DNA from: Bacteroidales bacterium
GTDB lineage: Bacteria; Bacteroidota; Bacteroidia; Bacteroidales; WCHB1-69
DNA length: 64,000 bases
Assembly (NCBI GenBank): GCA_016290295.1
Contig: JAEETJ010000004.1
Span: 10,546-74,545, forward strand
Direction of reading: 5' to 3'
Of this stretch, positions 20,935-62,935 are shown in pieces; position 1 is the stretch's first letter; the number at the start of each line of letters is the position of its first letter. Both the position numbers and the translations under genes were made by a program. The notes beneath the pieces are model-generated. The model did not search any database and was not told where the DNA came from. It saw only the letters and a list, made by a program, of their open reading frames with translations.

Positions 20935-21489
20935 ATGGCAGACACCTCAGCTCAATTTGACGAAATCGCCAAACAGTGCACCGACCTGTTTTCGAAAAAG
21001 GCCATTGACTATGGCACAGCATGGCATATTCTGCGACTGCCCTCGCTCACCGACCAGATTTATATCAAAGCCCAACGCATTCGCAGCCTGCAAGAGACCG
21101 GTGTAAACAAAGTGGGTGAAGGTATCATTCCTGAGTTTATCGGCATCGTCAACTATTCGGTTATGGCCCTCATCCAGTTGGAGGTAGGCGTAGCTGAGAC
21201 CATGGATGAGATGCTTCCCGCCGACGAGGCCATCAAGCTATACACCAAGTACCTCAATAAAGCCAAGGAGTTGATGATGAACAAGAATCATGACTATGGC
21301 GAGGCTTGGCGCAAGATGCGCATCAGTTCACTCACGGACATCATCTTGATGAAGCTTTTGAGAATCAAACAGATTGAAGACAACCAGGGCAAAACCCTCG
21401 TTTCCGAAGGCCTGGATGCCAACTATTACGACATGATTAACTATGCGATGTTTGCGTTGATTCGCTTAGTGATTGAAGAAGAGGAGTAA
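20935..21489 (+). CDS. DUF1599 domain-containing protein
   Basis: 184-aa ORF with two internal repeats of the DYG.AW....SL.D.I.IK..RI pattern (DYGTAWHILRLPSLTDQIYIKAQRI and DYGEAWRKMRISSLTDIILMKLLRI). Confidence 0.7.
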   Translation: MADTSAQFDEIAKQCTDLFSKKAIDYGTAWHILRLPSLTDQIYIKAQRIRSLQETGVNKVGEGIIPEFIGIVNYSVMALIQLEVGVAETMDEMLPADEAIKLYTKYLNKAKELMMNKNHDYGEAWRKMRISSLTDIILMKLLRIKQIEDNQGKTLVSEGLDANYYDMINYAMFALIRLVIEEEE

Positions 21490-21510
21490 ACGAGACATTT
21501 CAATTGATAG

Positions 21511-21542
21511 AAAAGGTCGGCAGAATCTGCCGACCTTTTTTT
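21511..21542 (+). terminator. rho-independent terminator; marks the left edge of the accessory island
   Basis: aaaaGGTCGGCAGaatCTGCCGACCttttttt: 9-bp GC-rich stem, 3-nt loop, T-run. Confidence 0.85.
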
Positions 21543-21750
21543 CTTATAAAAACTCCTAAAATTCCAATGGCCATCCTGAAGATTTCTATTGTATCAGAAA
21601 ACACACAATATGTTTCTTTTGCATGTTATCATACAATTTTGTCCACTTTTTGAACGAACGATACATTTTATACAACTCTGATTTTTAGCAAATTAACAAT
21701 AACTTTGCTCTTGATTTTATGATTTGGATAAAATAACTTTGCGGACAAAA
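21543..21750 (+). promoter_or_regulatory. cassette promoter module P1 (repeat family, copy 1 of 6)
   Basis: GTCCACTTT box at 21641, TGATTTTTAGCAAATTAACA core, and -7 box TAACTTTG at 21734-21741 (93 nt after the GTCCACTTT box). The ATG follows at 21757. Confidence 0.7.
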
Positions 21751-21756
21751 AAACAA

Positions 21757-22182
21757 ATGAACTTCACGAACAACAAAACTGGTGTCTTTGGACCCATATA
21801 TAACCAATTTCAAAACCAGCCGAAACTGGCTATTAAGCATTTACTTAAAGTACAAAACGGAGAGTGTCCCAAAGCACTGTTTCGCGAAGATATCGGATTT
21901 ATTGATATAGTATGGGGCAAAAATGATCCAAAAACCAACAAAGGATATGGTTTGAAACATATTGTGGAAAAACATGGTCAAAACATAAAATAATTGGGCT
22001 TTGAAGTTGAGGATTTTATTCCAATTGTGGTACAGTTTGGAAACTTATCCGTGAAGAAATCAGATGATAAGAAAATGATATTGGAAAGTGATACATTTAG
22101 AATAGTCATACAAACAAGGTGGGATAATCAGATCAAAATCTTTTTGCTAACAGCCTTTGATTTAAGAAAAAAGCCTGAATAA
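21757..22182 (+). pseudogene. small nuclease-like gene (PBECR/polyvalent-protein-module-like) interrupted by one in-frame TAA at 21991-21993
   Basis: MNFTNNKTGVFGPIYNQF...IDIVWGKND...GYGLKHIVEKHGQNIK-TAA-LGFEVEDF...IFLLTAFDLRKKPE. The two track ORFs (21724..21993 and 21994..22182) are in the same frame and contiguous. The domain assignment is from memory and is tentative. Confidence 0.5.
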
Positions 22183-22254
22183 ATCAGGCTAATTCTTGCA
22201 ATTACCAGGACTGCACTCATTGGTAATTTTACGATAAAGATACTCCCTTTACCA
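22166..22254 (-). ncRNA. candidate small antisense RNA (promoter + ~85-nt transcript + terminator)
   Basis: Minus strand: TTTG, then 19 nt, then TATCTTTG (-7 box, plus-strand coordinates 22261-22268). An internal hairpin AATTACCA/TGGTAATT follows. The terminator AGCCTGA-tttat-TCAGGCT+T6 straddles the stop codon of the plus-strand gene. No expression data. Confidence 0.3.
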
Positions 22255-22368
22255 ACGAGGCAAAGATACAAAAAAAATCATACGAAGCAAAAAATTTCTT
22301 TTCATTTTTTTCACCATGATAGGAAAATAGGTAAAAGATCTTTACCGACATTTTCAGCCTTGCAAAAC

Positions 22369-22560
22369 TTGACGGAATTAGCGGCGGAGCCGCAATCACC
22401 GTATAGACCCAGGCAGAGCGCCTATACCACCCCACCCTCGTAGAGGGTTCAACATCAACAGGCATGGGTATAACACCGTTATTTCTGCCGCGGTGCGGGT
22501 ATCGTGTGCACCGAAGCATTTTGGGCAAGGACACCGCGGAGGGGGGGAGCGTTTGAGACG
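22369..22560 (-). repeat. B module copy 1: ~190-nt GC-rich multi-hairpin element
   Basis: About 90% identical to 23341-23530. Hairpins: GCGGC-gga-GCCGC, ACCCTC-gta-GAGGGT, GTATAG...CTATAC, and an 8-bp stem CCGCGGTG/CACCGCGG (22487-22494 / 22532-22539) enclosing TGCTTCGGTGCA (minus-strand reading). Confidence 0.75.
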
Positions 22561-22775
22561 AAGAAGACACAATAAAAACTCCCAAAATTTCTGCTGCCAT
22601 TCTAAAGATTTTTGGAGCAGCAAAAAACACACAATATGCCTTTTTAGCATGTTATCGTATTATTTCGTCCACTTTTTGAACGAACGTTGCATTTTATACA
22701 ATACTGATTTTTAGCAAATTAACAATACTTTCATACTTGATTTTATGATTTGGATAAGATAACTTTGCAAATAAA
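22561..22775 (+). promoter_or_regulatory. cassette promoter module P2
   Basis: GTCCACTTT at 22667; -7 box TAACTTTG at 22760-22767 (93-nt spacing). Near-identical to P1 and P3. Confidence 0.7.
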
Positions 22776-22788
22776 AAAATTCAAAAAC

Positions 22789-22804
22789 TTGATATATATA
22801 TCAA
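22789..22804. promoter_or_regulatory. perfect 16-bp palindrome TTGATATATATATCAA (candidate operator)
   Basis: Read directly. It lies between P2 and a second -7-like box TAATTTTG (22814-22821), upstream of the small gene + XRE pair. Confidence 0.45.
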
Positions 22805-22828
22805 TTATTTTTATAATTTTGCAACGTC

Positions 22829-23066
22829 ATGAAAAAGAAAAGCACATTGGATAAAATATCCGAATCTCAAAAGGCTACACTCTACTCCATCAGCTTCGAG
22901 AAAGATGGCACAACTGAATTTGAGAAGTTTGTGTCAGAATTCGAGATGATATGTGATAGATTTACAACGGTTTGAAAAAATCTTAAAAGAAAACATTGAG
23001 AAAGGCTATATCAGCGTTCACGAAAAAGAACTTATAGGTACAGACAATATCATTTTCGAAATATGA
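22829..23066 (+). pseudogene. small gene upstream of XRE regulator, apparently frameshifted (+1) near 22970
   Basis: Frame 1 gives MKKKSTLDKISESQKATLYSISFEKDGTTEFEKFVSEFEMICDRFTTV*. The +1 frame continues KILKENIEKGYISVHEKELIGTDNIIFEI*, and its TGA overlaps the ATG of the next gene (ATGA at 23063-23066). Confidence 0.4.
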
Positions 23067-23332
23067 AAAACAAACAAGAATGGTTCAAATCAAAAGTGAA
23101 GCAAGTCCCTCCGGAAATCATGACGGAAGTACAGCTTTCCGCTGGCATTATTGCACGCATTGACAGAATTCTCAAAGAAAAAAACATGACCCAGCGCGAT
23201 TTGGCGAAGAAATTAGGGAAAAACGAAGCCATGGTATCACGATGGACCACAGGGTTCCCTAATTTCACACTTCGTACCTTAGCACAGATTTCCACCGCCT
23301 TGGGCGAACCGCTTATCAAATTGGCAGAGTAG
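23063..23332 (+). CDS. XRE-family helix-turn-helix protein (antitoxin-like regulator)
   Basis: 89-aa ORF. The HTH reads MTQRDLAKKLGKNEAMVSRWTTGFPNFTLRTLAQISTALG. Confidence 0.75.
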   Translation: MKNKQEWFKSKVKQVPPEIMTEVQLSAGIIARIDRILKEKNMTQRDLAKKLGKNEAMVSRWTTGFPNFTLRTLAQISTALGEPLIKLAE

Positions 23333-23340
23333 CCTTCCTG

Positions 23341-23530
23341 AGTTTGACGGAATTAGCGGCGGAGCCGCAATCACCGTATAGACCCAGGCAGAGTGCCTAT
23401 ACCACCCTACCCTCGTAGAGGGTTCAACATCAACAGGCATGGGTATAACTCCGTTATTTTTGCCGCGGTGTAGGTGTCGTGTGCACCGAAGCATTGGGCA
23501 AGGACACCGCGGAAGGAGGTCGATTGAGCT
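23341..23530 (-). repeat. B module copy 2
   Basis: Same hairpin set as B1. Differences include a 2-nt indel (cattttgggc vs cattgggc) and scattered substitutions. Confidence 0.75.
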
Positions 23531-23750
23531 GAAGAAGACACCCCAAAAACTCCCAAAATTTCTGCTGCCATTCCGAAGATTTCTGGAGTAGCAAAAAACA
23601 CACAATATGCATTTTTAGCATGCTATCGTATTATTTCGTCCACTTTTTGAACGAACGATACATTTTTTCATAACACTGATTTTTAGCTAATTAACAATAC
23701 TTTCACGCTTGATTTTAAGATTTGGATAAGATAACTTTGCGGACAAAAAA
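23531..23750 (+). promoter_or_regulatory. cassette promoter module P3
   Basis: GTCCACTTT at 23638; -7 box TAACTTTG at 23732-23739 (94-nt spacing). Confidence 0.7.
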
Positions 23751-23809
23751 ACTTATAGTAAAAAAAACAGTAAGTTATAACATATTGCAACTTTTTTGTA
23801 TTTTTGCCA

Positions 23810-24148
23810 ATGGAAAGAAAAATAATCACTTATGGAAATTATTTTAGATCATTTTTAAAGACGCTATGTGAAAATGTTCGATGGAAATTGGATTATGTAT
23901 TGGATATGTTGAAGACCCAAAAGCGGCTCAACTCGAGGTTCGTCAAACCTATAAGAGAAGGGATTTTTGAATTAAGAATAGAATGGGAAGGTGACATATA
24001 TCGGGTTTTCTTCATTTTCGACGAGGGTAACATTATCGTTCTTTTTAATGGATTCCAAAAAAAAACAAGAAGAACTCCGACTTCAGAGATAGAAAAAGCA
24101 ATAACGATAAAAAAGGAATACTATGAATACAAAAGAAAACAAAATTAA
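23810..24148 (+). CDS. type II toxin, RelE/ParE superfamily (HigB / phage Gp49-like)
   Basis: The ORF is trimmed to the ATG at 23810. The IREGIFELRIEWEGDIYRVFFIFDEGNIIVLFNGFQKKTRRTP pattern is typical of Gp49/HigB-like toxins. It is followed by an overlapping XRE antitoxin gene. Confidence 0.75.
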   Translation: MERKIITYGNYFRSFLKTLCENVRWKLDYVLDMLKTQKRLNSRFVKPIREGIFELRIEWEGDIYRVFFIFDEGNIIVLFNGFQKKTRRTPTSEIEKAITIKKEYYEYKRKQN

Positions 24149-24428
24149 GAGCTATGACACTATACTTGACGAAAGGTATGGTGCCGTTGGCACTCCCGAA
24201 AGGGAAGCTTTCCGCAAAGAAGCATACGCCTACTATATGGGCCAAGTAATACGTGAAGCCCGTCGGGAGGAAAAGATAACCCAGTCCGAACTAGGCAAAC
24301 GGATTGGCGCCAATAAAAGCTACATATCAAGAGTCGAAAACGGACTCATCGACCCCACCATTTCAACCATTTATAGCATTATTACGGCTTTGGGATTAAG
24401 AATTGAGATTGTGCGCCCTGTAGGTTAA
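24123..24428 (+). CDS. HigA-like XRE-family antitoxin
   Basis: 101-aa ORF with HTH ITQSELGKRIGANKSYISRVENGLIDPTISTIYSIITALG. It overlaps the toxin 3' end by 26 nt. Confidence 0.75.
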   Translation: MNTKENKIKSYDTILDERYGAVGTPEREAFRKEAYAYYMGQVIREARREEKITQSELGKRIGANKSYISRVENGLIDPTISTIYSIITALGLRIEIVRPVG

Positions 24429-24510
24429 CATAAACAGCCACAGGTCATTGTTTTTGCAGTTATAATTAGACACCTTTTGGGTATTCTATTTGATGAAATT
24501 CAAACAGCGA

Positions 24511-25086
24511 TTATAAGTCATCTATTGCCGAACTGCGAACCTTTTCGGAATTGGCCTTGTCGTAATAGCCCAATCGAACAGCAGCTGTATTATATTTTGT
24601 CCCAGAAATAATAGACAGCTCAATGTTACCTAGATCTGTAGAGAATATGGTATACCATTCATATTCACCATCTTTTAATGCATACATGATAAGAGCATTA
24701 TCATTCCCATGATAGTCTATAAAACGTTCTCTATTGTCCGATGGAATTCCATATTTTTCAGTCAACATGGATTTTAGAGTTTCATAATCACTTAAAACCG
24801 ATGTCCATGTATCTTTATCAGGAAACAACACTGTGATATGACTCACAACATCGAGGTTTTTCAACGTGGATACCCCAACAACACAATTTTTATATCCCGC
24901 GAAATCACCAGTCAATATGGATATTCCATCTTGAGTTCCCTCGTAGTGGAATCCGGCTTTTACCATGGCATTGGTATATTCCTGTAAGGTGCCATCAATG
25001 GGCACACCCTTAAAAGAAAGATGTTGTTGGGCAAATGCAGTACCTGCAATAATGAGGCAAACGAAAAGGATGATTATTTTTTTCAT
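24511..25086 (-). CDS. secreted hypothetical protein
   Basis: The ORF is trimmed to MKKIIILFVCLIIAGTAFAQQ (signal peptide). No recognisable domain. It starts 28 nt downstream of the radical SAM gene on the same strand. Confidence 0.55.
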   Translation of the reverse strand: MKKIIILFVCLIIAGTAFAQQHLSFKGVPIDGTLQEYTNAMVKAGFHYEGTQDGISILTGDFAGYKNCVVGVSTLKNLDVVSHITVLFPDKDTWTSVLSDYETLKSMLTEKYGIPSDNRERFIDYHGNDNALIMYALKDGEYEWYTIFSTDLGNIELSIISGTKYNTAAVRLGYYDKANSEKVRSSAIDDL

Positions 25087-25114
25087 AGGGCTGTTGGTTT
25101 TTTCAATGTTATGT

Positions 25115-27178
25115 TTATTTATGTTTATATCGTTTATTTGCATGTGCAGGATCTTTGTCATATTCTTTTTTCATCAAATAAAGTTCTGTATTAGACTCTA
25201 TTAGGGATTTTCTGTCATTTTTATAAAAAGATAATAATTCCAAAACCAAAGGATTACAGAATCGTTCGTTATCGTTCTCAAAATTATTTTGATGAATATA
25301 TTCTTTAACTTCTTCCCACTCATTTGATGGAAGTATATTTTCACATTTTTTGAAGCAAGTCCACCAGGAATAAACAGAAAAATGTTCCAAACTATAACCC
25401 AATACTCTTTTTGCAGTCTCTATACCTCTTTCAAGGCCAAGCCATTCAAAGAAAAAACGATAAATAATCATCGTTTCAGGCATTTCAAGCAATTGATGAT
25501 ATTCATTTATATCTTTGCCAAAAGCTTTCTCAAAAAAAGATGTGCCTCGCCCAATCTTGCCCTTGGTGCTATTTAATATGGCTTGAACGGCACGAATATA
25601 TTTTCTATTCCAATATTCTCCAATATAGTCTCGATTATGGGAAAAATCCTCTTTCATCTCATCGTTTTTGCGAATAGGATGGAATTTCATCGGGAAGGAA
25701 TATATACTTATTCCAAGAGTATCGCATAAATCCACATTAATCCTTAAACGCTCATATAAACTGTCTGGATGGTCTTTGTAATTATATAGCAAGTAATTTG
25801 AAAAATCTTTTATTCCTGCATCTTTACACATACGAATTGCCTCACAATATTCGACCTTAGTATGTAGATTATCAAAGGCTATGCGAACGGGACGAATGGC
25901 GATCTGTCCTAACAATCTGGCTTTTTCAGGTGTAAACAATCGAGCATCTAAACCTTGATTAAAATCAACAAAACGAAGTTTACCTTTCCCAGGCTGATAA
26001 TACTTTTTGCCCACATCTTTCAGTTCATCGTATGCAGCAAGAATATTTTCCTTTGTCGCTGAATGTAATTTGTTAATATGATATTTTTGGAACAATATTT
26101 TGTATGCGAGATATGATTCTTCTCTGTTTTTCAACTTATTATAAAGTTCCATTAATAGTCTTTGTGATTTTCGAACATAAGCACGATCATTAACACCTTT
26201 TTGAAGATTATTTATACTTAATCTCAATAAATCCGGTTGCACAAATTTCTCACCCTTAGCGAACCCACAATCCTTAATTTCTTGAATAATTTTATCAAAA
26301 TGATTGGATGCCAAAACATTGTTGTCCATTAAAAGCAGATCTTTTTGTTCACCGTATTTTTTTCGGACATTGTCTATCCGAATTTTTAAAGGGATATAAT
26401 CTTGATAAATAGGCTCTAGAGTTTTTACAGCGCAAAACGCACAATTCCTTATACAACCACGTGTAGTGTATCGATAATACGCATTAGACATAGGATACTG
26501 ATAATCTATCTCATCAAGAATAGAATAGTCTAGTTCTAATTCATCAATAGGAATAGTATTATCCAGATCTAAATCTCCAGGTCGTAGAATCCCGACATGG
26601 ATCCCACCTGGTTTACCATGTTTATGAAGTTTCAAACCCGTAGCTATTGACAATTCATGAGGTTGGATTGAGGCAAGTACCCCTCCAACCATAAGGTTAC
26701 TGTTTTTCTTAACCAAAAATTTTGCGAATTCGACGGTCTCTACAGTGATGTCCCAATAAAATGTGAAGAGAGTCGTCACACAAACGACGTCCCACTCTCG
26801 TTCTCGAGGATGTTTCCAAATTCCTTTCCAATAATAGTCTTTGTATTCAATGAGTTTGGAATATAAAAGAATTGATAATTCAGAACTCTCAAGTTCTAAT
26901 TTGTCAATATACTCTTTGCGTTTTGTACGAATAAATTGAATAACAAACTCTTTTTTTAAATACCATTCAACAGAAGAATCAATCTGGGAAAAAGCATTGA
27001 TACACTTATCAGCAATACGCTCAATCACAAATTGTTTCAAGTCGCCTTTATAAAACACAACTTCATCTCCCACCATTTTGTAGTAAGTAGAGATTTTCAT
27101 CAAACCTACTGGAGGAAACTTATTTGCATAATTAGGTTCAATAAGCAGTACTTTCCGTTTCTTTTTTTGCCTTGTCAT
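25115..27178 (-). CDS. radical SAM enzyme with N-terminal B12-binding-like (Rossmann) domain and long C-terminal extension
   Basis: 687-aa ORF with a CX3CX2C cluster (TTRGCIRNCAFCAV). The N-terminal KVLLIEPNY..PPVGLMKISTYYK..GDEVVFYKGD...VVCVTTLFTF...LMVGGVLAS resembles class B rSAM cobalamin-domain topology. There is no SPASM-type Cys cluster and it is not viperin-like. Its start lies 1 nt after the upstream gene stop. Confidence 0.75.
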   Translation of the reverse strand: MTRQKKKRKVLLIEPNYANKFPPVGLMKISTYYKMVGDEVVFYKGDLKQFVIERIADKCINAFSQIDSSVEWYLKKEFVIQFIRTKRKEYIDKLELESSELSILLYSKLIEYKDYYWKGIWKHPREREWDVVCVTTLFTFYWDITVETVEFAKFLVKKNSNLMVGGVLASIQPHELSIATGLKLHKHGKPGGIHVGILRPGDLDLDNTIPIDELELDYSILDEIDYQYPMSNAYYRYTTRGCIRNCAFCAVKTLEPIYQDYIPLKIRIDNVRKKYGEQKDLLLMDNNVLASNHFDKIIQEIKDCGFAKGEKFVQPDLLRLSINNLQKGVNDRAYVRKSQRLLMELYNKLKNREESYLAYKILFQKYHINKLHSATKENILAAYDELKDVGKKYYQPGKGKLRFVDFNQGLDARLFTPEKARLLGQIAIRPVRIAFDNLHTKVEYCEAIRMCKDAGIKDFSNYLLYNYKDHPDSLYERLRINVDLCDTLGISIYSFPMKFHPIRKNDEMKEDFSHNRDYIGEYWNRKYIRAVQAILNSTKGKIGRGTSFFEKAFGKDINEYHQLLEMPETMIIYRFFFEWLGLERGIETAKRVLGYSLEHFSVYSWWTCFKKCENILPSNEWEEVKEYIHQNNFENDNERFCNPLVLELLSFYKNDRKSLIESNTELYLMKKEYDKDPAHANKRYKHK

Positions 27179-27179
27179 A

Positions 27180-28712
27180 TCAAGCCAAATCTTTAACCAC
27201 TTTTTTTCTTAATTCTTCTAAAAGGTCCCTATGTCGCTTGGGGCAATACGCGAACAACAAATCAAATATTCGCTTTGTGATTTCTATATCACTGTTTGAC
27301 ATTACCTCTTTTAGGGATTCATACGGATCAGTTGGTTTCAACAAATTATTCGTGGAAACGATGTTACTTTTGTCAGATTGCGGCATATCGCTGCCTGTCT
27401 CTATGCTTGAAGCGATAACTTGTTGCTTGTAATGTTCAATTACTTGTTTGGCAGCAACTGATTGTGCATTTTTTGACTTCTCCTTCCGATAAAGCTTGTC
27501 CAGCACAATATTTTTCTCCTCCTGTTTTTCAGGGGTTAGCTTTTCCTCTTTTTCAATTGTATTGATATCTCTGACGACATTCTTAATTTCATTTGCCAAG
27601 TGATATAACTTAACAAGTTCATCAAATTTATCTCTAATGAACGACTTCAATTTCTCAGATTCAGGAGTTGGAGCTAATCCATCTCTAGCACTATTAAGTT
27701 TGATCTTGGGATTCACAATATGTATTTCCCCATAAAAATATTTATTACCTCGTGTTTCGTTTTTGGGAAAGTATTGTGTCAAAATATTAGCATCTCCAAC
27801 CTGTATATTATGTTTGCGTAAACGGAAGCAACTATTTTTATCCGACACAGGAATCTGTTTTGAGAAAGGTGTGTTTGCATACCATCCCCATGCCAACAAA
27901 CCGTATTTCTCATCTTCAAACTTGAAATACTCCAATCTTAAAATATCATCGCCGGTCCCTTCAATTTTTAACCCATATTTTTTCTTTAGAGAAATGCCAT
28001 TGTTGACCGATATTTGGAAAAAACCAACTTTCTGGTGTAAATCTCTATACTCATCGTGAACACAAGTATCAACCAATTGATTCTTAAAAGGCACGGAATA
28101 ATCAACTGGTGCAACTTCCTTGAGATAATCTGATATAACACACTCATCTAACAATTCTGGATAATCAGGGTGGATATTTTCAAGAGTTACAATAAAATAG
28201 TGTTTTGAAGCTTCTTCTTCGTATAGTTTCAAATCTGTAGTCTTATCAATCACTTCCGTTGCTGTAGAGTGGTCTGAATCATCATCTAGAATGTTTTTTA
28301 TTTTATCAATATCAAAGACTATTTCAGACGCCTTATTTTCGCCTTTAAAAGACGTCTTGAAAGAAAGTTTTTTACAAAAATATCCGCCGACCAGTCTTCC
28401 AATGCCAAATTGTCCAGCTGAAGTCTCTCCATCTTTTGAAGAGTCTGCTATATCAAGCAACACCGGTTCCACCTTGTCTATAGATACTCCTGTTCCATTA
28501 TCTTCAATGGTAATTATCTTGTCAGTTTTATTGATAGTGATAGAAATCCTTCCATCAGTTATCTTTGACAAGACACCACTTTGTACCGCATCATTTATTG
28601 CATCCCGTGAATTCTGTATGTATTCTCGATAAATCAATTTTGAATCTCCATACATTTGGAACATAAGCATGGAAATAAGATTCTTACCGACTTTTGATTT
28701 ATGCTCTGTCAT
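27180..28712 (-). CDS. GHKL-superfamily ATPase, Hsp90/HtpG-N-terminal-like (MORC-like conflict-system ATPase)
   Basis: 510-aa ORF. It has the N-box LIYREYIQNSRDAINDAV, the G1 box ITIEDNGTGVS and the G2 box GQFGIGRLVGGYF. The C-terminal half is helical and charged. Confidence 0.75.
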   Translation of the reverse strand: MTEHKSKVGKNLISMLMFQMYGDSKLIYREYIQNSRDAINDAVQSGVLSKITDGRISITINKTDKIITIEDNGTGVSIDKVEPVLLDIADSSKDGETSAGQFGIGRLVGGYFCKKLSFKTSFKGENKASEIVFDIDKIKNILDDDSDHSTATEVIDKTTDLKLYEEEASKHYFIVTLENIHPDYPELLDECVISDYLKEVAPVDYSVPFKNQLVDTCVHDEYRDLHQKVGFFQISVNNGISLKKKYGLKIEGTGDDILRLEYFKFEDEKYGLLAWGWYANTPFSKQIPVSDKNSCFRLRKHNIQVGDANILTQYFPKNETRGNKYFYGEIHIVNPKIKLNSARDGLAPTPESEKLKSFIRDKFDELVKLYHLANEIKNVVRDINTIEKEEKLTPEKQEEKNIVLDKLYRKEKSKNAQSVAAKQVIEHYKQQVIASSIETGSDMPQSDKSNIVSTNNLLKPTDPYESLKEVMSNSDIEITKRIFDLLFAYCPKRHRDLLEELRKKVVKDLA

Positions 28713-28724
28713 AACACTCTGATT

Positions 28725-30377
28725 TTAGCCATTAGGAAATTGCTTGTATGTTGGACGTGGAAATTTAATATTTACCAAAGACCGCAGTGCTGGATTGGAA
28801 ATAATATATTCACCTGGGGAAAGTCTAGTCATCATATTTTGGTATACTTTCGGAATATACCTATAATCAGACTTTGAAACTTCGATTGCATTCGTGCGAC
28901 CATACGCATGCGTAGCACAGTTTCCTTTTACTCTATCGTGTATTGCGCTTCGAAATTGCTCAACCGAAAAAAGTATGATTCCTAAAGAACGACCGCGTTC
29001 GGCAATATCTAGCAATTGCCGTAGAATAGGCGAGTTTTTAGGTACATCGTTTGAAGCATATTTGTTCAATTCATCCACAAACAAAATCACTTTTTCAGGG
29101 ATATCATCACGTTCTGCACCCAATTTCATATCATAAATGGCACGTGCCACACTACCGAATACAAAACTTTGAGTATTCTCGTCTAGGCGGGCAATATCAA
29201 TTACCATTACTTGACCTGCCTTCAAATTATTTTGTATTTCATCTGTAATGTCAACATCCAAATTTGTATGTGTTTTGGCAAATACATCATTTCTAATAGC
29301 TTTACTTATACAACGTTTGAATTTTCTCCAACTAGTAACTTGTATCTCTTTGTTTTTATTGTCTTTATTTCCAGCTTGTGTTGATTTGCTAATAGCATCT
29401 TCTAATGACGACCACTTGTCAATTCCTTGAAAAGCGCCCTCCTTGTTAATGACGAAATTTACGCAACTTTCCAATGTACCAGAGCTATCATCCTCATTGG
29501 CAAGTAGTAAATCTAATTTATCCTGTGATTTTTCAAATGTAAATTTGTATGTAAAAGCTTTTTTATTCTCCTTCTGTCTTTTAACATCGTCTGGTTTGGC
29601 ATAAGTTTGCACATTTTCAACAATACTATCTTTACTATATGGATAATAGTATTTGACATTTTTAAATGGTTCAGCCGACAAACCTAAATCCATATAAATT
29701 TTTTTATCCATATCCGATAAATCTGTATTTGCCTCGTCTATCGCCATCAAGTCCCTTCCTTTTACATTGAAAAAAACGAAAGCAGCAGAACTCCCATCTT
29801 CAAGCCTAAATTTGTGTTGAATAGCATTAAGTAAAAACATGGAGTATGATGTTTTTGCTGCTAAGCCTGAAATACCAGAAATATTAAGATGTGCTCCTTC
29901 TGGACCGATAAGGAAATGAGAGTCCAGTTCCACTTTTACTTTACATGTTTCATCTCCTTGATACATTTGCAAATACCCACATACGAGAGGATGTTTCACA
30001 TCTTTTAACCCAAGAGCAACTTTAATATCCTCTTCATCACAAAGAGAAACCTGTTTGCCGTCTAATACAGGCGTATAAACATCTCCTGTATTACAAACAA
30101 CACGAGCTTTTACATAATTCATTCCCAAATGATTCATATAGCCAACGACTTCTTTAGTATCTCCAAAATCGCTAGAAATATAACTAGTAAAATGACTTGA
30201 TGAATCTGTTACATGGTTAATTTCTTCAACCACACCATATGTAACAGAATCTAACTCGTGTGTAACTTTGACGACATCAAAAGGACTGAGAATACATCGT
30301 TTGTCAGTCCAAAAATAAAACTCGTCAATAGTTGATGGCATATTTTCAGTGGCAGATACTTTACCAATAATTTTCAT
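28725..30377 (-). CDS. HerA-like FtsK/HerA-superfamily ATPase (HAS-barrel + P-loop, DUF87-type)
   Basis: 550-aa ORF. It has an N-terminal HAS-barrel-like segment (KIIGKVSATEN...FDVVKVTHELDSVTYGVVEEINHV), an atypical P-loop (ISGISGLAAKTSY), Walker B (VILFVDELNKY) and a distal ERGRSLGIILFSVEQ segment. Confidence 0.7.
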   Translation of the reverse strand: MKIIGKVSATENMPSTIDEFYFWTDKRCILSPFDVVKVTHELDSVTYGVVEEINHVTDSSSHFTSYISSDFGDTKEVVGYMNHLGMNYVKARVVCNTGDVYTPVLDGKQVSLCDEEDIKVALGLKDVKHPLVCGYLQMYQGDETCKVKVELDSHFLIGPEGAHLNISGISGLAAKTSYSMFLLNAIQHKFRLEDGSSAAFVFFNVKGRDLMAIDEANTDLSDMDKKIYMDLGLSAEPFKNVKYYYPYSKDSIVENVQTYAKPDDVKRQKENKKAFTYKFTFEKSQDKLDLLLANEDDSSGTLESCVNFVINKEGAFQGIDKWSSLEDAISKSTQAGNKDNKNKEIQVTSWRKFKRCISKAIRNDVFAKTHTNLDVDITDEIQNNLKAGQVMVIDIARLDENTQSFVFGSVARAIYDMKLGAERDDIPEKVILFVDELNKYASNDVPKNSPILRQLLDIAERGRSLGIILFSVEQFRSAIHDRVKGNCATHAYGRTNAIEVSKSDYRYIPKVYQNMMTRLSPGEYIISNPALRSLVNIKFPRPTYKQFPNG

Positions 30378-30378
30378 A

Positions 30379-31581
30379 TTAAAACATATTTAGAATTATA
30401 TTTTCATTAACATAATGCGATTTGCAAAAAGATTCAGTTAAGAAAATAGGGTACAAATGATTTGCCCAACGTGAATCTTTCCCAAAACACACGGGATATG
30501 CTTCTCGGATTAACTGTGAACTTATTGTGTTAATTAGTTCCGTTTCAAAAGGGCTATCATCCATTATCACCATTTCGCATTTAATGATATCTGAGAAATG
30601 TGAATCTCGAAAATCACTATTGCGCAGTCTGACATACCATACCGCAAATGCTTGAACAAAACCGTCTTTATTTTGTGATTCATAACGATACACTTTAGTA
30701 CGTTCAAATGGCTTTAACTCGGCAATCGTTCTTGAAAGTCGATTTCCTTCATAATCAGAGAGAAGAGCGGGATCAAATAATTTGGAGACACCGACAACAT
30801 GTGTGTAATTATCTTTAAAGTTATTGAACTGCGTTTTATCAAGGTTTGAAAACCTTGGATTATATTCCAAAGAACCATCTTTAATTAGCCAATGCTCATC
30901 ATCTAGTTTGTTTTCTTGGCAAAGATTTGCCACAAGAAGTTGCTCTTCATCCATCATTTCATTTTGAATCTTAGCTACCGCACGATTCTTATAATTGTCT
31001 TTGTCACGATCCTCACTTGACCCATCAGTTTTGTATAGCAATATCTTATCAATTGTCAAATTTCTATCTGAAATGAATTTGGACTTTAACATTTCAGTAT
31101 TCAAACTTTCGCAAAATGCACGACAAAAGTTCTCACCTCCATCATCATCATCAAAATCATCAGGCATTGCAATGACAATTTTACTACAAAGAGCACCCCT
31201 TTTAACAAGGGATGCATTCTTAATACAATCCCGACTTTTCCGTTCACAACAACCCACTATCACTTGTCCTGCAATTATGGGGAAAATTTTCTTACCAATG
31301 GCAATATCATCTACCTTGTATGTATGGCGTGAACCATCAAGAAAAAAACTAAATATTGGAGGGGGCACAACAGTATGACTTAGTAATTTGGACAAATCGA
31401 CTGTTTTTTTTCGTGTTCTATCTGTTTCTGCAAAGTCACTCTTTGTAGAAATAGAGGCAACCTTATCATCATAATTATAAGCTATGGAATCGTTGTTCAC
31501 TGTGTCCAGTGATAATTTCTTCGTCTTGTAACAATGATATTTGCCATTACCCTGCAACTCTATGAAATCTAATATTTTCAT
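30379..31581 (-). CDS. NurA-like nuclease (RNase H-fold), partner of the HerA-like ATPase
   Basis: 400-aa ORF. The motif order resembles NurA: FLDGSRH, then ..CCER.., then WLIKDGSLEY, then VVGVSKLF, then LYPIFLTESFCKSHY. Its stop lies 1 nt before the HerA-like start. The assignment is motif-based and needs profile or structure confirmation. Confidence 0.5.
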   Translation of the reverse strand: MKILDFIELQGNGKYHCYKTKKLSLDTVNNDSIAYNYDDKVASISTKSDFAETDRTRKKTVDLSKLLSHTVVPPPIFSFFLDGSRHTYKVDDIAIGKKIFPIIAGQVIVGCCERKSRDCIKNASLVKRGALCSKIVIAMPDDFDDDDGGENFCRAFCESLNTEMLKSKFISDRNLTIDKILLYKTDGSSEDRDKDNYKNRAVAKIQNEMMDEEQLLVANLCQENKLDDEHWLIKDGSLEYNPRFSNLDKTQFNNFKDNYTHVVGVSKLFDPALLSDYEGNRLSRTIAELKPFERTKVYRYESQNKDGFVQAFAVWYVRLRNSDFRDSHFSDIIKCEMVIMDDSPFETELINTISSQLIREAYPVCFGKDSRWANHLYPIFLTESFCKSHYVNENIILNMF

Positions 31582-31954
31582 ATTCTTTCAAACTGTTTTT
31601 TCCCCACCCCAAAAAAAATTTATTTCCTATCAAAGTTCCGGAAAGACTTGCAACATAAATAAAGTAACTCCACGCCTAAGCGCAAACATCACTTTTTATA
31701 GAGCTTTTTCAAAACTTTCCAGTTTCTAATATCACAAAAAAAATGCTTTTTTATACTAAGTGTTTTAAAGAGATTGTTTTCTTCTATGGGCAATTATTAT
31801 TTGTTAATGATTAAATTCGTTTTGTGCATCATATGCGTTGCAAAAGTAACATAAATTTCTAAAAAAAACAACAAAAAACTATCTTTTACAACGGTTTTCC
31901 ATTGTTTTTGTTTTGTTGCAAAGTATTGTTATTACTTTGTTGGCATGTTCGCGA

Positions 31955-32305
31955 CTTTCGCGGCAGGCTCATCCCATCATCATAGCAAGCAACACCCGCA
32001 CCGCGGGAGGAGTGATGATGTCGCTCCTACCCCACACTGCGGCCTGCGGCCTTGTGAGGGGTTACTAAAAGGTCGCCTCTGCGAGGCTCAATTGGTACGG
32101 CTTCGCCGTAATATACATACCATTACCCCGCCCTTCGGGCACCCGTTGGAGGCGTTGTCCCTTGTCCGTTCCAGGGGCTTTGCCCCTGTCTGTACCAGGG
32201 GTTTCACCCCTGTCTATGGTCTTTTCGGCCCTACGGGCCTTACTCCGCCCTGTCGATGCGTCCCATCAATTGTCCACCAACGGACGCATGCGATGCGTCC
32301 CTATA
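31955..32305 (+). repeat. C module copy 1: mosaic of GC-rich hairpins (REP/BIME-like)
   Basis: It begins with CTTTCGCGGCAGGC. Contents: CCAGGGGctttgCCCCTG, CAGGGGtttcaCCCCTG, GGCCCtacGGGCC and GGACGCATgcgATGCGTCC. Confidence 0.75.
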
Positions 32306-32401
32306 TATCATATTTATATCAAAAATTTCCGCATGGAAATTTTTACCTTAATACCGCTTTTGCGAATTACTTGCTTAGAAAAACGAGGAGTATGGAGAGC
32401 T

Positions 32402-32543
32402 AAAAAGCCGACTGTTTGAGCTTGCTTTTGCAAGCGAGTTTCGGCTTTTTAGGCTACAGACGACCGTTTTTTAGCGAGCATATTCGCATGCGGAAAAGCC
32501 ACTTTTCTTTGCCCCTTTCTTTTGTGGCTGCAAAAGAAAGGGG
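32402..32543. other. two strong nested hairpins between C1 and P4
   Basis: AAAAAGCCGA...(GCTTGCttttGCAAGC)...TCGGCTTTTT at 32402-32450, and CCCCTTTCTTTTG-tggctg-CAAAAGAAAGGGG at 32512-32543. Confidence 0.7.
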
Positions 32544-32559
32544 AAGAAAAAAAAATCAC

Positions 32560-32700
32560 AACATCTTTTTTGCAACTTTTCGCTCACTTTCGTCCACTTT
32601 TTGACCCGAAAGTGCAAATTGTCAAACCATTGATTTTTAGCAAATTAAAAATTATTTTGCCATTGATTTTTCAGTTCAGGTGTTGTACCTTTGCAGAAAT
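32560..32700 (+). promoter_or_regulatory. cassette promoter module P4
   Basis: GTCCACTTT at 32592; -7 box TACCTTTG at 32686-32693 (94-nt spacing); ATG at 32721. Confidence 0.7.
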
Positions 32701-32720
32701 CAAAAACTAAATAAAAACTT

Positions 32721-33296
32721 ATGGAAAAGAATCGTCCTCAAGTGGGGAGCGGGCCATCCAATTCGGACTCCCCATCAGACAATGTCAATTCTTCTATTAC
32801 GAGTAGCCCTACCGATACCCTTCGTACCTCGAAGAATCCGAGTGCAAAAATAATAAAAAATCCAACACCAATATTGTCAAAAATAAGGAAATTTAAAAAC
32901 AATGACTTCGTCCTAAATTACTCTAAAGGATGGAATGGTGTATTAGTTGGTTTACGAAAACTCCTGCAACTAAATTATGAAGGCGGTTCAAACTATGCAA
33001 ATTACGAAACTCAAAAGGGGATTTTATCATTAAGGCTTTCTGACCATAATGCAAATGGCAACAATTTTAACACAGACCACATCAATATAAGTGTTTATGT
33101 TGCACTGATTGAATATCAGCATGTTGAGACAAGGGTAAAATACATAGAATATAGAATCACGAAAGAAACGTATAATAAATACCCCAAAAAAGTTGTATAT
33201 GAAATTGTAACTGCAGTTGAACGAGCATTGAGTGGTGAAGTGTTTGAATTAAACAATGACATTGCTGAGAAGACGCCTTATGAAATAGAAATCTAG
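32721..33296 (+). CDS. hypothetical protein (disordered Ser/Pro/Asn-rich N-terminus, globular C-terminal ~130 aa)
   Basis: 191-aa ORF directly served by P4. No domain recognised. It has a notable LSLRLSDHNANGNNF segment. Confidence 0.55.
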   Translation: MEKNRPQVGSGPSNSDSPSDNVNSSITSSPTDTLRTSKNPSAKIIKNPTPILSKIRKFKNNDFVLNYSKGWNGVLVGLRKLLQLNYEGGSNYANYETQKGILSLRLSDHNANGNNFNTDHINISVYVALIEYQHVETRVKYIEYRITKETYNKYPKKVVYEIVTAVERALSGEVFELNNDIAEKTPYEIEI

Positions 33297-33377
33297 GGCC
33301 TGACAAGTCTGCTTAAACTCCGCCATGACAATGTGTGCGGGAGCAAGATCGAAATCATCCTTTGCTAAAACAACACA

Positions 33378-33754
33378 CTTTCGCGGCAGGCTCATCCCAT
33401 CATCATAGCTGGCGACACCTGTGCCGCGAGATGGGTATGGGGCATTTTGTACCAGGGGGTTCACCCCTGGCTATGGTCTTTTCGGCCCTACGGGCCTTAC
33501 TCCGCCCAGATGCCACATCCCTACAATTGTACACCAACGGACGCACGCGATGCGTCCCTACAGACTAATCCAGCGGACACATAGAGAAATGCCTACGGCT
33601 GCCGTGATACGACAGCCCTACATGATGTGCGTGCGGACGCGGACGCATGCGATGCGTTCCTACACATAATACCCTGCGGCATCAGGGCGTAAAACTTCCG
33701 AAATTTCAGTTCCACCCTTCCTATCTTCAACCTGGATTCCAAAACCTCCACCTT
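33378..33754 (+). repeat. C module copy 2
   Basis: The anchor hairpin CGCGGCA...TGCCGCG is followed by CCAGGGG/CCCCTGG, GGCCC/GGGCC and three hairpin+CCCTACA units (minus strand reads GTAG+hairpin). About 95% identical to C3 over ~250 nt, estimated by eye. Confidence 0.8.
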
Positions 33755-33892
33755 CTTTTTTTTGCAACTTTTCGAACAATCTTGTCCACTTTCTGATCCA
33801 AAAATACAATTTATTAAACTATTGATTTTTAGCAAATTAACACACAATTTACTATTGATTTTTCTGTACTGATATCGTAACTTTGTGGGCAA
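33755..33892 (+). promoter_or_regulatory. cassette promoter module P5
   Basis: GTCCACTTT at 33784; -7 box TAACTTTG at 33878-33885 (94-nt spacing); ATG at 33906. Confidence 0.7.
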
Positions 33893-33905
33893 AAACAAAG
33901 TACTT

Positions 33906-34898
33906 ATGGCAAAGAAAAAGGATAAGAACGAACAACAAACTATCAAACCAGTCACAAATTGTGACCAGTTCCCAGAGGTAGTGGAAAATTTCCACCACTT
34001 CAAAGAAAACGAATCTATACTAAGTGTTCATGATATTGAAAAACTAATCGTAACGCTCAGAGGCGTACAAGTTATTATTGATCGTGATTTGGCATTTCTA
34101 TATCAGGAAGAAGTCAAACAAATGAACCGTCAGGTGAAGCGTAATATTGAACGTTTCCCTGCAGATTTCATGTTTCAACTGACCAAGGAAGAGTATGCTA
34201 GTTTGAAGTGCCATTTTGGCACTTCAAACGAAAGGGGTGGTGATCGTCGTGCATTACCCTATGCGTTTACCCAACAAGGTATTGGTATGCTCAGCGGGCT
34301 GCTTCGTAGTCAAGTGGCAATTGAGACCAACATCAAGATAATGCGAGCCTTTGTGGGTATGCAACGATACATCGCCGCTAGCATGCAGCTATTCCAGCGG
34401 TTAAACATCGTAGAGCTCCAACAATTGGAGGCCCGACAATGGATGAAAGATACGGAAAACAAAATTGAAAGCATTCTTGAAAGAATCGAAGAGAATTCCC
34501 CAAAAATGCTTCCAGAGCAAATTTTCCACACCGGCTGTGTATGGGACGCATGGGCTTACGTTTCTGACCTCGTTCGAAGCGCCAAAAGCCGAATCATCCT
34601 CATTGATAATTTCGTTGATGACAGGGTGCTTACCATGCTCACCAAACGTACCGAGGGCGTTACGGCTACCATCCACACCCGTTACAGTGAGCAGTTCCTC
34701 ACTGACTTGAAGAAGCACAACGAACAGTATCCTGAAATCCAATTCATCCAGCTCTCTCATCGCCACCACGACCGTTTCTTGATTATCGACGACAAGGTTC
34801 ATTTCCTCGGTGCCAGCGTAAAGGACATGGGCACCGGCCTCTGTGCCATTACAGAGATGAAAGTTGATCCTGAAACCATTTTGGGGCTGTTAAAATAA
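33906..34898 (+). CDS. ORF6N (KilA-N-related) DNA-binding domain protein fused to a PLD-like domain with HxR variant motif
   Basis: The ORF is trimmed to MAKKKDK. ORF6N core: LRGVQVIIDRDLAFLYQEEVKQMNRQVKRNIERFPADFMFQLT...LPYAFTQQGIGMLSGLL. C-terminal HDRFLIIDDKVHFLGASVKD fits the HxKxxxxD(x6)G spacing with R in place of K. Confidence 0.7.
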   Translation: MAKKKDKNEQQTIKPVTNCDQFPEVVENFHHFKENESILSVHDIEKLIVTLRGVQVIIDRDLAFLYQEEVKQMNRQVKRNIERFPADFMFQLTKEEYASLKCHFGTSNERGGDRRALPYAFTQQGIGMLSGLLRSQVAIETNIKIMRAFVGMQRYIAASMQLFQRLNIVELQQLEARQWMKDTENKIESILERIEENSPKMLPEQIFHTGCVWDAWAYVSDLVRSAKSRIILIDNFVDDRVLTMLTKRTEGVTATIHTRYSEQFLTDLKKHNEQYPEIQFIQLSHRHHDRFLIIDDKVHFLGASVKDMGTGLCAITEMKVDPETILGLLK

Positions 34899-34964
34899 CG
34901 ACCTGTTATTAGTACCGACGCTGTGCAGGGCAAGGCCGCCACCTCCCTCTGCTACAGCAACAGC

Positions 34965-35361
34965 CTTTCGCGGCAGGCAAGTTCCGTCATCAAAGCCAGT
35001 GTCCCTTGTGCCGCGAGGTGGGTATGGGGCATTTTTTACCAGGGGGTTCACCCCTGTCTATTCCAGGGGCTTTGCCCCTGTCTGTATTCTTTTCGGCCCT
35101 ACGGGCCTGATTAAGCCATAACACCGCATCCCTACAATTGTTCACCGACGGACGCATGCGATGCGTCCCTACAGACTAATCCAGCGGACACATAGAGACA
35201 TGCCTGCGGCTGCCGTGATACGACAGCCCTACATGATGTGCACGCGGATGCGGACGCATGCAATGCGTCCCTACACATAATACCCTGCGGCATCAGGGCG
35301 TAAAACCTCCGAAATTTCAGTTCCTCTCTCCCCTACTTCAGCTTGGATTCCAAAACCTCCA
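34965..35361 (+). repeat. C module copy 3
   Basis: Same unit order as C2, with an extra CCAGGGGctttgCCCCTG unit. Confidence 0.8.
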
Positions 35362-35505
35362 CCTTCCTTTTTTTTGCAACTTTTCGCTCACTTTTGTCCA
35401 CTTTCTGACCCAAAAGTTCAATTTATTAAACTATTGATTTTTAACAAATTAACAATTACTTTTCCATTGATTTTATGATTTCAACATTGTAACTTTGCGA
35501 GCGGA
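35362..35505 (+). promoter_or_regulatory. cassette promoter module P6
   Basis: GTCCACTTT at 35396; -7 box TAACTTTG at 35490-35497 (94-nt spacing); ATG at 35530. Confidence 0.7.
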
Positions 35506-35529
35506 AACAAACCATTAATTTTAAATACT

Positions 35530-36132: not shown

Positions 36133-36245
36133 CGCTTCGTCCCTACAATTGTCCACCAACGGACGCATGCAATGCGTCCCTACAGACTAATCTAGCGGAC
36201 ACATAGAGAAATGCCTGCGGCTACCGTGATACGACAGCCCTACAG
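36133..36245 (+). repeat. C module copy 4 (truncated: two hairpin+CCCTACA units); right edge of island
   Basis: cgtCCCTACAattgtccaccaacGGACGCATgcaATGCGTCCCTACAgactaatc...GGCTAccgtgatacgaCAGCCCTACAg. Confidence 0.75.
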
Positions 36246-36540
36246 AAAGTTGGTAAAAAAACTTCATGTCAGCTTGATTTTTTGATCACTTTTTTATCAA
36301 GTTTTCATTGAAATATTCAAACGGACATGTGAAATAACAGAACAAAAAATGTTCTTGTTATATAGAAGAAAAAAGTGACGAAGAAGTTATCTATTTTTTG
36401 ACTATCTTTGCACCCTCAAAATTTAGACCTAAAAATATAATAAAGTTATAATATTTCTAAACTCATAAACTCAAAATTCTAAACCCAAACTTACAAATCA
36501 CCATCATTAATTCTTGTTTTTAATTCTTAACTCCAAAAAT

Positions 36541-62574: not shown

Positions 62575-62935
62575 AGAGTTTCCATCGGCTACAACAATAC
62601 CGTTTCGCGGCGGTCACATTTTCTGCTTCGGTGCATATATAACCCACGCCGCGACCGTGATGTATGACAATTCCAATTTCTATTGACATGGAATCCCTGA
62701 CGGGATTCGGTGACGGTGTGCACTCATCTTCCCAGGGTGTCGGTGCTCGTACCTCTTACCTCGCACCTTGCCCTGGACTATCGAGCCCTGCAGACCTAAA
62801 GGCCTGCATACATTGGCAACATCAGTTCATTGATGAATGAGTGCAGAAAACACCGATACACAGAGCGGACGCGATTCATCGCGTCCCTACAATGAAATCG
62901 GACACAACAAATTGCATTCCTACAGTAAATTTCAT
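62575..62935 (+). repeat. isolated GC-rich hairpin mosaic related to the island B/C modules
   Basis: The anchor hairpin TCGCGGCG/CGCCGCGA (62604-62611 / 62647-62654) encloses TGCTTCGGTGCA. Further hairpins are GAATCCC/GGGATTC, CCAGGG...CCCTGG, and GGACGCGAttcaTCGCGTCC followed by CTACA. Confidence 0.75.

Follow-up and report, generated by a model that had tools for sequence, protein, structure and literature searches.

Two intergenic modules of a rumen Bacteroidales chromosome as probable members of a mosaic palindromic repeat family

Introduction

Repetitive extragenic palindromic (REP) sequences and bacterial interspersed mosaic elements (BIMEs), described in Enterobacteria and Pseudomonas, are extragenic and GC-rich relative to their surroundings. 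Their palindromic units carry a conserved single-stranded tag beside a stem that varies while its pairing is kept, and they are found singly, as inverted doublets (REPINs, mobilised by REP-associated tyrosine transposases, RAYTs) or in mosaic clusters, whichever way the neighbouring genes run. Transposable elements of the miniature inverted-repeat type (MITEs), such as Correia and Nezha, are non-coding elements bounded by terminal inverted repeats (TIRs). The BOX elements of Streptococcus pneumoniae are structure-rich, modular intergenic repeats (boxA-boxB-boxC) with a variable number of modules and no transposase of their own. In this study, a 64-kb stretch of Bacteroidales DNA (contig JAEETJ010000004.1, positions 10,546 to 74,545; hereafter the window, to which all coordinates refer unless a locus is named) was analysed with a focus on two intergenic modules of ~200 nt, B1 and B2. 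We consider these, with a probability of roughly 0.6, to belong to a mosaic repeat of the MITE or REP/BIME kind that is non-coding and lies in the intergenic DNA of rumen Bacteroidales.

Hairpin repeats are also known from gene arrays. In integrons, where they are called attC sites, and in rAID-1 clusters, a hairpin repeat whose structure is conserved over its sequence follows each small accessory gene. Integron attC sites keep one constant orientation and serve promoterless cassettes, and a rAID-1 cluster is headed by a XerD-family recombinase gene, with repetitive intergenic sequences in its array (bioRxiv 10.1101/471110). The family described here behaves like the known classes REP/BIME, BOX and MITE but is apparently undescribed. 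It is absent from Rfam and without a match in plasmid, phage and viral-contig collections, its hosts are uncultured rumen Bacteroidales, and no description of it in Prevotella or Bacteroidetes was found in the literature. A description would aid the annotation of intergenic DNA in rumen Bacteroidales metagenome-assembled genomes (MAGs) and would account for breaks in assemblies.

Structure of the B modules

A first-pass annotation of the window, made from the sequence alone, had described B1 and B2 as about 90% identical. Alignment of B1 (22369-22565) with B2 (23341-23535) gave 91% identity, with an ungapped core of 165 nt that was 93% identical. The likeness ran past B into the adjoining promoter spacer, termed the A module, up to ~22790 and ~23760, respectively. 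As the identity spans B and the A spacer together, the duplicated unit is B plus A, ~430 nt in length. Within B, the left part was specific to the lineage of the window, and the ~140-nt right part (B-right) corresponded to the unit of a wider family. The boundary between the two is CTACCCTC, where truncated copies at two other loci start exactly (L012, 740-880, and L085, ~1455-1590; L numbers denote fetched loci).

Read on the minus strand, B-right consists of a leader, a stem core, a linker, a CTGTTGATGT box and a CCC/GGG hairpin. In B1 the box appears on the plus strand as ACATCAACAG, the reverse complement of CTGTTGATGT. The 8-bp stem enclosing TGCTTCGGTGCA was verified in both modules, its arms reading CCGCGGTG and CACCGCGG on the plus strand and enclosing TGCACCGAAGCA. 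Both elements of the core are far more frequent in the window than chance predicts, with three occurrences of the TGCTTCGGTGCA 12-mer against 0.31 expected and six of the CGCGGYR...YRCCGCG pattern against 0.01 expected. A covariance model (R1) built on 40 distinct copies of the family matched the core of B1 at 22477-22544 (minus strand, 59.7 bits) and that of B2 at 23452-23517 (minus strand, 67.5 bits).

The same two-module layout as in B-right was found in a solo copy downstream of lon, which the model matched at 62600-62665 (plus strand, 67 bits). This distal copy is composed of the leader CCATCGGCTAC, the core at 62605-62654, a 25-nt linker, a CTATTGACAT box at 62680-62689 and a closing hairpin GAATCCC-tgac-GGGATTC at 62691-62708. 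Its arms are TCGCGGCG (62605-62612) and CGCCGCGA (62647-62654), with TGCTTCGGTGCA retained at 62624-62635 on the plus strand. As the first-pass annotation had noticed, its stem differs from that of B1 and B2 at two positions and both differences are compensated in the partner arm (outer pair C-G to T-A; pair 7 T-A to C-G).

The B region is non-coding. The ORF overlapping it had no Pfam match, and its reading frame is disrupted by indels, among them the 2-nt B1/B2 indel that had been reported earlier and is real. The annotation had further claimed at least four hairpins in B, and this held in part. The hairpin ACCCTC/GAGGGT showed no variation in 10 B-like copies, and GCGGC/GCCGC showed one compensated pair among B-like copies (C-G in four, T-A in three, C.A in one). 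TATAG/CTATA and ATAAC/GTTAT, the remaining predictions, were not conserved in diverged B-like copies (72-76% identical). Taken as a whole, the ~200-nt B did not exceed its dinucleotide shuffles in stability (z-scores of +0.27 for the minus and -1.12 for the plus strand).

Distribution of the repeat family

One genome per species was scanned for the pattern CGCGG-N12-24-TGCTTCGGTGCA-N10-22-CCGCG. It gave 24 copies, uniform in length at 47-50 nt, from eight rumen Bacteroidales MAGs, namely RUG14804, RUG11690, RGIG7800, ruminal_MAG_113, two red-deer MAGs, RGIG10052 and RGIG9334; in GC-rich taxa, chance matches of other lengths were obtained. A further scan of rumen metagenomes, in which only the 5' arm and the centre were constrained and the 3' arm was left free, gave 28 more stretches, nearly all of them with an intact complementary 3' arm. 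When the fetched sequence (~400 kb) was searched with the covariance model, 61 distinct forward copies were identified, with CCUCGG, CUCCGU and CCCUGU among the variant centres. According to L099 and L100-L108, the window derives from a rumen metagenome assembly (GCA_016648415.1, JGI 3300041004). RUG14804 is a close relative of the window genome, the syntenic parts being 92-98% identical.

The conserved unit starts with a ~25-nt leader resembling GCATCAGCTA, ~25 nt 5' of the stem, followed by the core, a linker of ~26 nt, a CTRTTGAnRT box and a short hairpin. The core is 48-50 bp long and is formed by an 8-bp inverted repeat, YCGCGGYG/CRCCGCGR, around a ~35-nt interior with the conserved TGCTTCGGTGCA centre, which lies 11-13 nt from the left arm and 11 nt from the right arm. 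The stem of the hairpin after the box differs by lineage with its pairing kept (ACCCTC/GAGGGT, GAATCCC/GGGATTC, TCTCCC/GGGAGA, ATCCTC/GAGGAT and TTCCCC/GGGGAA).

Every copy of the family was intergenic, and convergent, divergent and tandem intergenic regions were all occupied. The gene flanking the leader side was co-oriented in 29 cases and opposite in 24, and many copies were located in divergent promoter regions with no gene reading into them. Most copies lie outside gene arrays, where their neighbours are ordinary genes, among them lon, rubrerythrin and Fib_succ_major paralogues. The latter adjoin repeat elements on their 5' or 3' side at ~6-8 independent loci (L008, L052, L065/L071/L090/L097, L075/L086, L079/L091 and L088/L095), a raw count uncorrected for the abundance of that family; the window's own Fib_succ_major copy (45678-46502) has no element beside it.

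The searches against known families gave no explanation for the repeat. No Rfam family matched anywhere in the window at gathering thresholds, and at E <= 10 none overlapped B1, B2 or the distal copy; this Rfam search had been proposed as a check for B. No match to the repeat was found by blastn against plasmid and phage collections, nor did the pattern match IMG/VR viral contigs. The window itself is ordinary chromosome, encoding QRPTase, L25, a SurA-like protein, a TonB receptor, ProRS, TGT, a topoisomerase, Lon and two C25 peptidases.

Pairing and covariation of the stem

Across the 61 distinct copies, 96% of the cells of the 8-bp stem were paired, and two-sided changes were observed in four of its eight pairs. 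Pair 1 was U-A in 42 copies and C-G in 15, pair 5 was G-C in 58 and A-U in 2, pair 7 was C-G in 42 and U-A in 16, and pair 8 was G-C in 53 and A-U in 3. The covariation score of the stem reached 0.173, compared with 0.094 +/- 0.007 in column shuffles; none of 500 shuffles attained this value, and it exceeded all slid controls. This level of pairing, together with covariation above both kinds of control, demonstrates that the inverted repeat is maintained. The larger alignment thus bore out the covariation expected from the first three copies, for the stem only.

The states at pairs 1 and 7 were linked. A T type, TCGCGGCG/CGCCGCGA (T...CG/CG...A), stood against a C type, CCGCGGTG/CACCGCGG (C...TG/CA...G), and the two stem types occupied opposite ends of one unit in several elements. 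Because of this linkage, the two changes seen in the distal copy represent one subfamily split and not independent events. The earlier proposal of selection on structure rather than on a protein frame was therefore upheld in that the region is non-coding and stem pairing is maintained family-wide, and weakened in that its two compensatory changes reduce to a single lineage split. A clean double compensatory change of this kind may reflect no more than two subfamilies of a palindromic repeat, and it argues only weakly for a functional RNA.

Structure is confined to the 8-bp stem. On neither strand did the ~35-nt interior fold better than its shuffles (mean z -0.1 and -0.2), and RNAalifold, run in either orientation, recovered the outer stem and an invariant 3-bp mini-stem alone. 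This predicted mini-stem, UGC/GCA, closes a six-base loop; the CUUCGG motif that had been read as a C(UUCG)G tetraloop hairpin is present in TGCTTCGGTGCA, and it is this wider loop that is predicted in place of the tetraloop. An extension of the helix by a bulge and a GG/CC step inside the core was considered and rejected, as pairs 14-48, 15-47 and 16-46 were mostly unpaired.

Folding revealed no strand preference, with mean minimum free energies of -22.4 and -22.3 kcal/mol and z-scores of -2.4 and -2.7 for the two strands. Where the arms differ yet still pair, only G.U intermediates occurred among the copies. In the UUCG orientation, the uncompensated changes comprised 17 C.A and 5 G.U cells, for which we estimate ~12 and 4 independent events, and this excess is suggestive at best as evidence on the strand. 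A hand tally of the C.A and G.U counts against the direction of incoming transcription showed no relation (7 vs 5 copies). The view that the element matters as a folded RNA, with the minus strand the relevant one, was not borne out by the equal folding energies, the 29 to 24 split in orientation and the C.A and G.U counts. Matched changes in the two arms would be equally expected if the inverted repeat acted as DNA, as the target of a dimeric protein or as the ends of a mobile element, a reading that fits the genomic distribution better.

Mobile-element features and turnover of modules

The core was carried by elements bounded by TIRs in the relatives. Two loci of RUG14804 (L037 on contig 22 and L059 on contig 2) have a ~420-nt element in common, 423 nt being aligned at 92% identity between unrelated flanks, and the element is bounded in both by ~24-nt TIRs, GGAATTATCCCTTTYNGTCTTGT. 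At other loci these termini enclose elements of 204, 376 and 617 nt; in all, they were found on the elements of L037, L059, L002, L029 and L052, so that the TIR-bounded elements carrying the core span 200-620 bp; all are non-coding.

At 9 of ~26 independent loci, two cores formed a convergent inverted pair whose starts were separated by 220-450 nt, and other hairpin modules lay in between. The modules recurred in varied order: leader plus core, CTRTTGAnRT plus hairpin, cccaggg...ccctggg, gcaggc..gcctgc and GTAG-type hairpins. Between close relatives, modules were gained and lost. The 228-nt block at 62680-62907, which has CAA on each side, is absent at the same locus in L009, L073 and L082 and has a different interior in L063 (RUG14804). 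Similarly, a truncated B precedes the first A module in L012 (RUG14804), and none is present there in the window.

Assessment of the repeat-element reading and its alternatives

The dispersal of the family in both orientations, the upkeep of its inverted repeat, its carriage in TIR-bounded elements, the inverted pairing of its cores and the gain and loss of modules are the observations on which we assign B1 and B2 to a mosaic repeat of the MITE or REP/BIME kind, in appearance a fragment of a mobile repeat rather than a gene for a dedicated RNA. The window copies would then be derivatives without the termini, and growth of the accessory-gene array would have duplicated them in tandem along with the neighbouring promoter spacer; such a duplication of B plus A would account for the 91% identity across both. 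The stem may be kept since the propagating machinery recognises the inverted repeat, either as a single-stranded DNA hairpin or as a symmetric duplex site, in which case a change in one arm would persist only if matched in the other. Should the element affect transcripts, for instance as a 3'-end hairpin, this would be a secondary effect that does not depend on orientation.

The comparison with described systems supports and limits this assignment. The family shares with REP/BIMEs its extragenic position, its GC-richness relative to the surroundings, its palindromic units, a conserved tag beside a stem that varies with pairing kept, and its occurrence singly, in inverted doublets and in mosaic clusters, whichever way the neighbouring genes run. 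In contrast to REP, an imperfect palindrome of 20-40 bp tagged with GTAG or CGTC, the core is 48-50 bp, is flanked by TTT...A without such a tag and has a ~34-nt unstructured interior. Inverted partners lie tens of nucleotides apart in REP and REPIN but 160-380 nt apart here, no RAYT turned up beside the copies at the fetched loci, and the host belongs to the Bacteroidales, where REP-like families are little described. The non-coding elements of 200-620 bp in the relatives, with their ~24-nt TIRs and a 92%-identical pair at unrelated loci, resemble MITEs, although inside they are mosaics of hairpin modules that vary from one to another. In BOX elements the order of modules is fixed, whereas order and orientation vary here, and sequences and hosts are unrelated.

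Several results weigh against the assignment. The window copies have no TIR within three mismatches of GGAATTATCCCTTTYNGTCTTGT, and their homology to the TIR-bounded elements starts only at the leader. No consistent target-site duplication was detected, the flanks being A/T-rich and themselves partly inverted, and no parent insertion sequence was found. Pfam scans of all large ORFs in the 64 kb gave no transposase, RAYT or integrase. Nor did any of these recur beside the copies among 456 ORFs clustered from the fetched loci, in which the only recurring ORFs were Fib_succ_major paralogues, helix-turn-helix (HTH) proteins and syntenic housekeeping genes. As ~8 kb was fetched around each match, the counts given above are of fetched loci and not copy numbers per genome. 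The conserved 12-nt centre and the leader would fit a domesticated functional RNA or a protein-binding site equally well.

We regard it as unlikely that the element acts as RNA, either as a 3'-untranslated hairpin by which the upstream transcript is stabilised or ended, as is the case for some REPs, or as a small RNA with its own promoter. The covariation of the stem would suit such a role, as would CUUCGG, a favoured RNA loop motif, and the conserved leader ahead of the stem. B2 starts 9 nt past a stop codon, the distal copy lies ~130 nt past that of lon in sense orientation, and the single-sided changes of the B-like copies are mostly G.U on the sense strand of the cassettes. Against this stand the mixed orientation to the gene reading in, the many copies in divergent promoter regions, an unstructured interior with equal strands and the lack of an Rfam match; in the hand tally of mismatched copies, wobble pairs fell on the transcribed strand in 7 and not in 5. 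A terminator role, which had been suggested for testing, found no support either, since the four terminator-like sites of 21400-24600 all fall outside B1 and B2 and no hairpin followed by a T-run, or U-tract terminator, occurs in B. On reading the sequence, no conserved TAnnTTTG promoter was seen at a fixed distance upstream. A reading of the core as the duplex binding site of a dimeric or tetrameric protein (a regulator, a nucleoid protein or a recombinase), with parallel changes in its half-sites and a hairpin that never forms, seems to us more doubtful still. The outer half-sites and an inner TGC-N6-GCA are nested on one dyad axis at the conserved spacing to the centre, the interior is conserved by sequence and not by structure, neither strand is favoured, and the stem types form two discrete classes. 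Yet none of the copies is linked to a candidate for the binding protein, the ~40 bp between the outer half-sites are unusual for a single regulator, and the carriage of the core in TIR-bounded elements and hairpin mosaics points to a repeat element rather than an operator.

The position of the B modules within gene arrays raises the question of site-specific recombination. Were the hairpins structure-specific recombination sites like attC that mark where one cassette ends and the next begins, site-specific capture of cassettes would account for the arrays at 21546-24468 and 31945-36250. In both arrays a B or C module with a CGCGG...CCGCG hairpin follows every cassette, comparable tandem sets with toxin-antitoxin-like genes occur in L012 and L085, the stem sequence varies with pairing kept as in attC sites, and Bacteroidales rAID-1 clusters with integron-like repetitive intergenic sequences have been reported (bioRxiv 10.1101/471110). 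The window has the repetitive spacers of a rAID-1 cluster but no integrase and no XerD-family or Xer-like recombinase gene in its 64 kb. Moreover, the copies are dispersed, most of them outside arrays, and the cassettes own a promoter module (TAnnTTTG). The orientation is inconsistent, the B hairpins being read on the minus strand beside the following promoter and the C hairpins on the plus strand beside the preceding stop codon; neither the constant orientation nor the promoterless cassettes of integrons are seen. In the sole strain comparison, with L012, the cassettes and their order were unchanged. Taken together, there is very little to recommend this explanation. Hardly better is the prospect that the core serves a structure- or symmetry-specific recombinase or transposase that would make hairpin modules and promoter-bearing cassettes (toxin-antitoxin, ORF6N and defence genes) gather at hot spots in rumen Bacteroidales chromosomes, an integron-like arrangement whose integrase would be unlinked. 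Each of the rivals, whether RNA hairpin, protein site or cassette recombination site, fits fewer observations than the assignment to a mosaic repeat. If a protein recognising the core were found, it would provide a Bacteroidales example for the REP/RAYT and MITE literature.

Related modules and neighbouring features

The coordinates of the modules and of related features are collected in Table 1.

Table 1. Repeat modules and related intergenic features of the window.
Feature	Position	Strand	Remarks
B1 module	22369..22565	-	B-left 22369-22425, B-right 22426-22565
B1 dyad-symmetric core (HP1)	22488..22539	-	arms 22488-22495 and 22532-22539, conserved centre 22507-22518
B1 short hairpin and box	22434..22461	-	hairpin ACCCTC-gta-GAGGGT 22434-22448, box ACATCAACAG 22452-22461
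B1 hairpin GCGGC-gga-GCCGC	22381..22393	not assigned	within B-left
B2 module	23341..23535	-	layout as B1; onset 9 nt past stop codon of HTH gene 23063-23332
B2 dyad-symmetric core (HP1)	23463..23512	-	arms 23463-23470 and 23505-23512, centre 23482-23493
Distal solo copy, downstream of lon	62582..62708	+	leader, core, linker, box, hairpin
Block of further hairpin modules, 228 nt	62680..62907	+	interior variable among relatives
C1 hairpin, third stem type, degenerate (CGCGGCA...CACCGCG)	31958..32006	+	covariance model, 19.7 bits
C2 hairpin TCGCGGCA...TGCCGCGA	33381..33429	+	pair 8 = A-T; covariance model, 24 bits
C3 hairpin TCGCGGCA...TGCCGCGA	34968..35016	+	covariance model, 23.5 bits
GGACGCATGCGATGCGTCC + CTACA hairpins	32295-32305, 33552-33562, 33654-33664, 35126-35136, 35163-35173	+	C modules
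GGACGCATGCGATGCGTCC + CTACA hairpins, remainder	35265-35275, 36137-36147, 36174-36184, 62881-62891	+	C modules / cluster downstream of lon
A modules	21546-21764, 22572-22790, 23543-23761, 32566-32693, 33758-33885, 35370-35497
AT-rich 8-nt-period tracts	845-990, 1512-1590, 7440-7530, 37713-37781, 55969-56023, 57208-57296, 59979-60026, 62456-62520

The three C modules carry a hairpin of the CGCGGCA...TGCCGCG type that is related to the core of B (31959-32005, 33382-33428 and 34969-35015), as the first-pass annotation had stated; that of C1 is without the TGC..GCA centre. A second kind of hairpin, GGACGCATGCGATGCGTCC followed by CTACA, occurs in nine copies, all on the plus strand (four exact to the probe and five with one mismatch, ~0.5 being expected by chance). 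CTACA is TGTAG in reverse complement, so that these hairpins, GGACGC...GCGTCC-CTACA, bear the REP-type GTAG tag (PMC3733652) on the opposite strand. A ~240-nt segment (32310-32550) that separates the first C module from an A module is 92-94% identical to four fetched loci (L001, L076, L084 and L096), where its relatives adjoin B-like modules. The segment holds a long hairpin, aaaaagccga...tcggcttttt, that is terminator-like on both strands.

The A modules are spacers of ~130-220 nt, 62-82% identical, that end in a Bacteroidetes-type TAACTTTG (TAnnTTTG) promoter box, and one of them precedes each small accessory gene of the two tandem arrays. From its sequence, the A module looks like a portable promoter or 5' region. 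The array genes encode a PBECR1 nuclease-like protein, an HTH protein, a Gp49/HigB-like protein with an HTH protein, an unknown 191-aa protein and two ORF6N proteins, and the repeats mark hot spots at which genes for toxin-antitoxin, ORF6N and defence functions accumulate. In the window, two ORFs (21724-22182) make up the broken PBECR1 nuclease-like gene, which is intact, at 152 aa, in RUG14804 (L012, 1062-1520). The next cassette gene (22830-23060) has lost ~240 nt at 22948/22949 relative to the 159-aa version of RUG14804 (L012, 2165-2644). Genes of the array are decaying in the window strain.

On the minus strand, a TATCTTTG promoter-like box at ~22265-22272 is followed by a hairpin-plus-T-run terminator at 22190-22172. 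The predicted ~90-nt minus-strand transcript, convergent with the PBECR1-like gene, might be an antisense or antitoxin RNA.

Among the contigs that encode an identical DUF1599 protein (L100-L108), all have the same arrangement or are broken within the repeats. Most of the short-read contigs in this set end within a few hundred bases past the first A module, which indicates that the A/B repeats break assemblies at the locus.

The two cassette arrays are separated by a five-gene minus-strand operon (24511-31581) with a low GC content of 34-36%, in place of which RUG14804 has other genes. It encodes a 510-aa protein with a HATPase_c_3 domain, a 550-aa protein that weakly matches the defence-system models HerA and mad8, and a 687-aa protein that weakly matches radical SAM; its remaining proteins match nothing. 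The operon may encode an uncharacterised defence system.

AT-rich tracts with an 8-nt period (AATTAGCA/AATTAGTT/AATGTGCA variants) follow many gene ends in both orientations and belong to a second class of intergenic repeats in this genome, unrelated to the first. In addition, two arrays of the 8-mer GGATTACA and 7-mer tracts (CAATTGT/CAATTAT) were recorded and are listed with 1587-1700 and 47359-47460.

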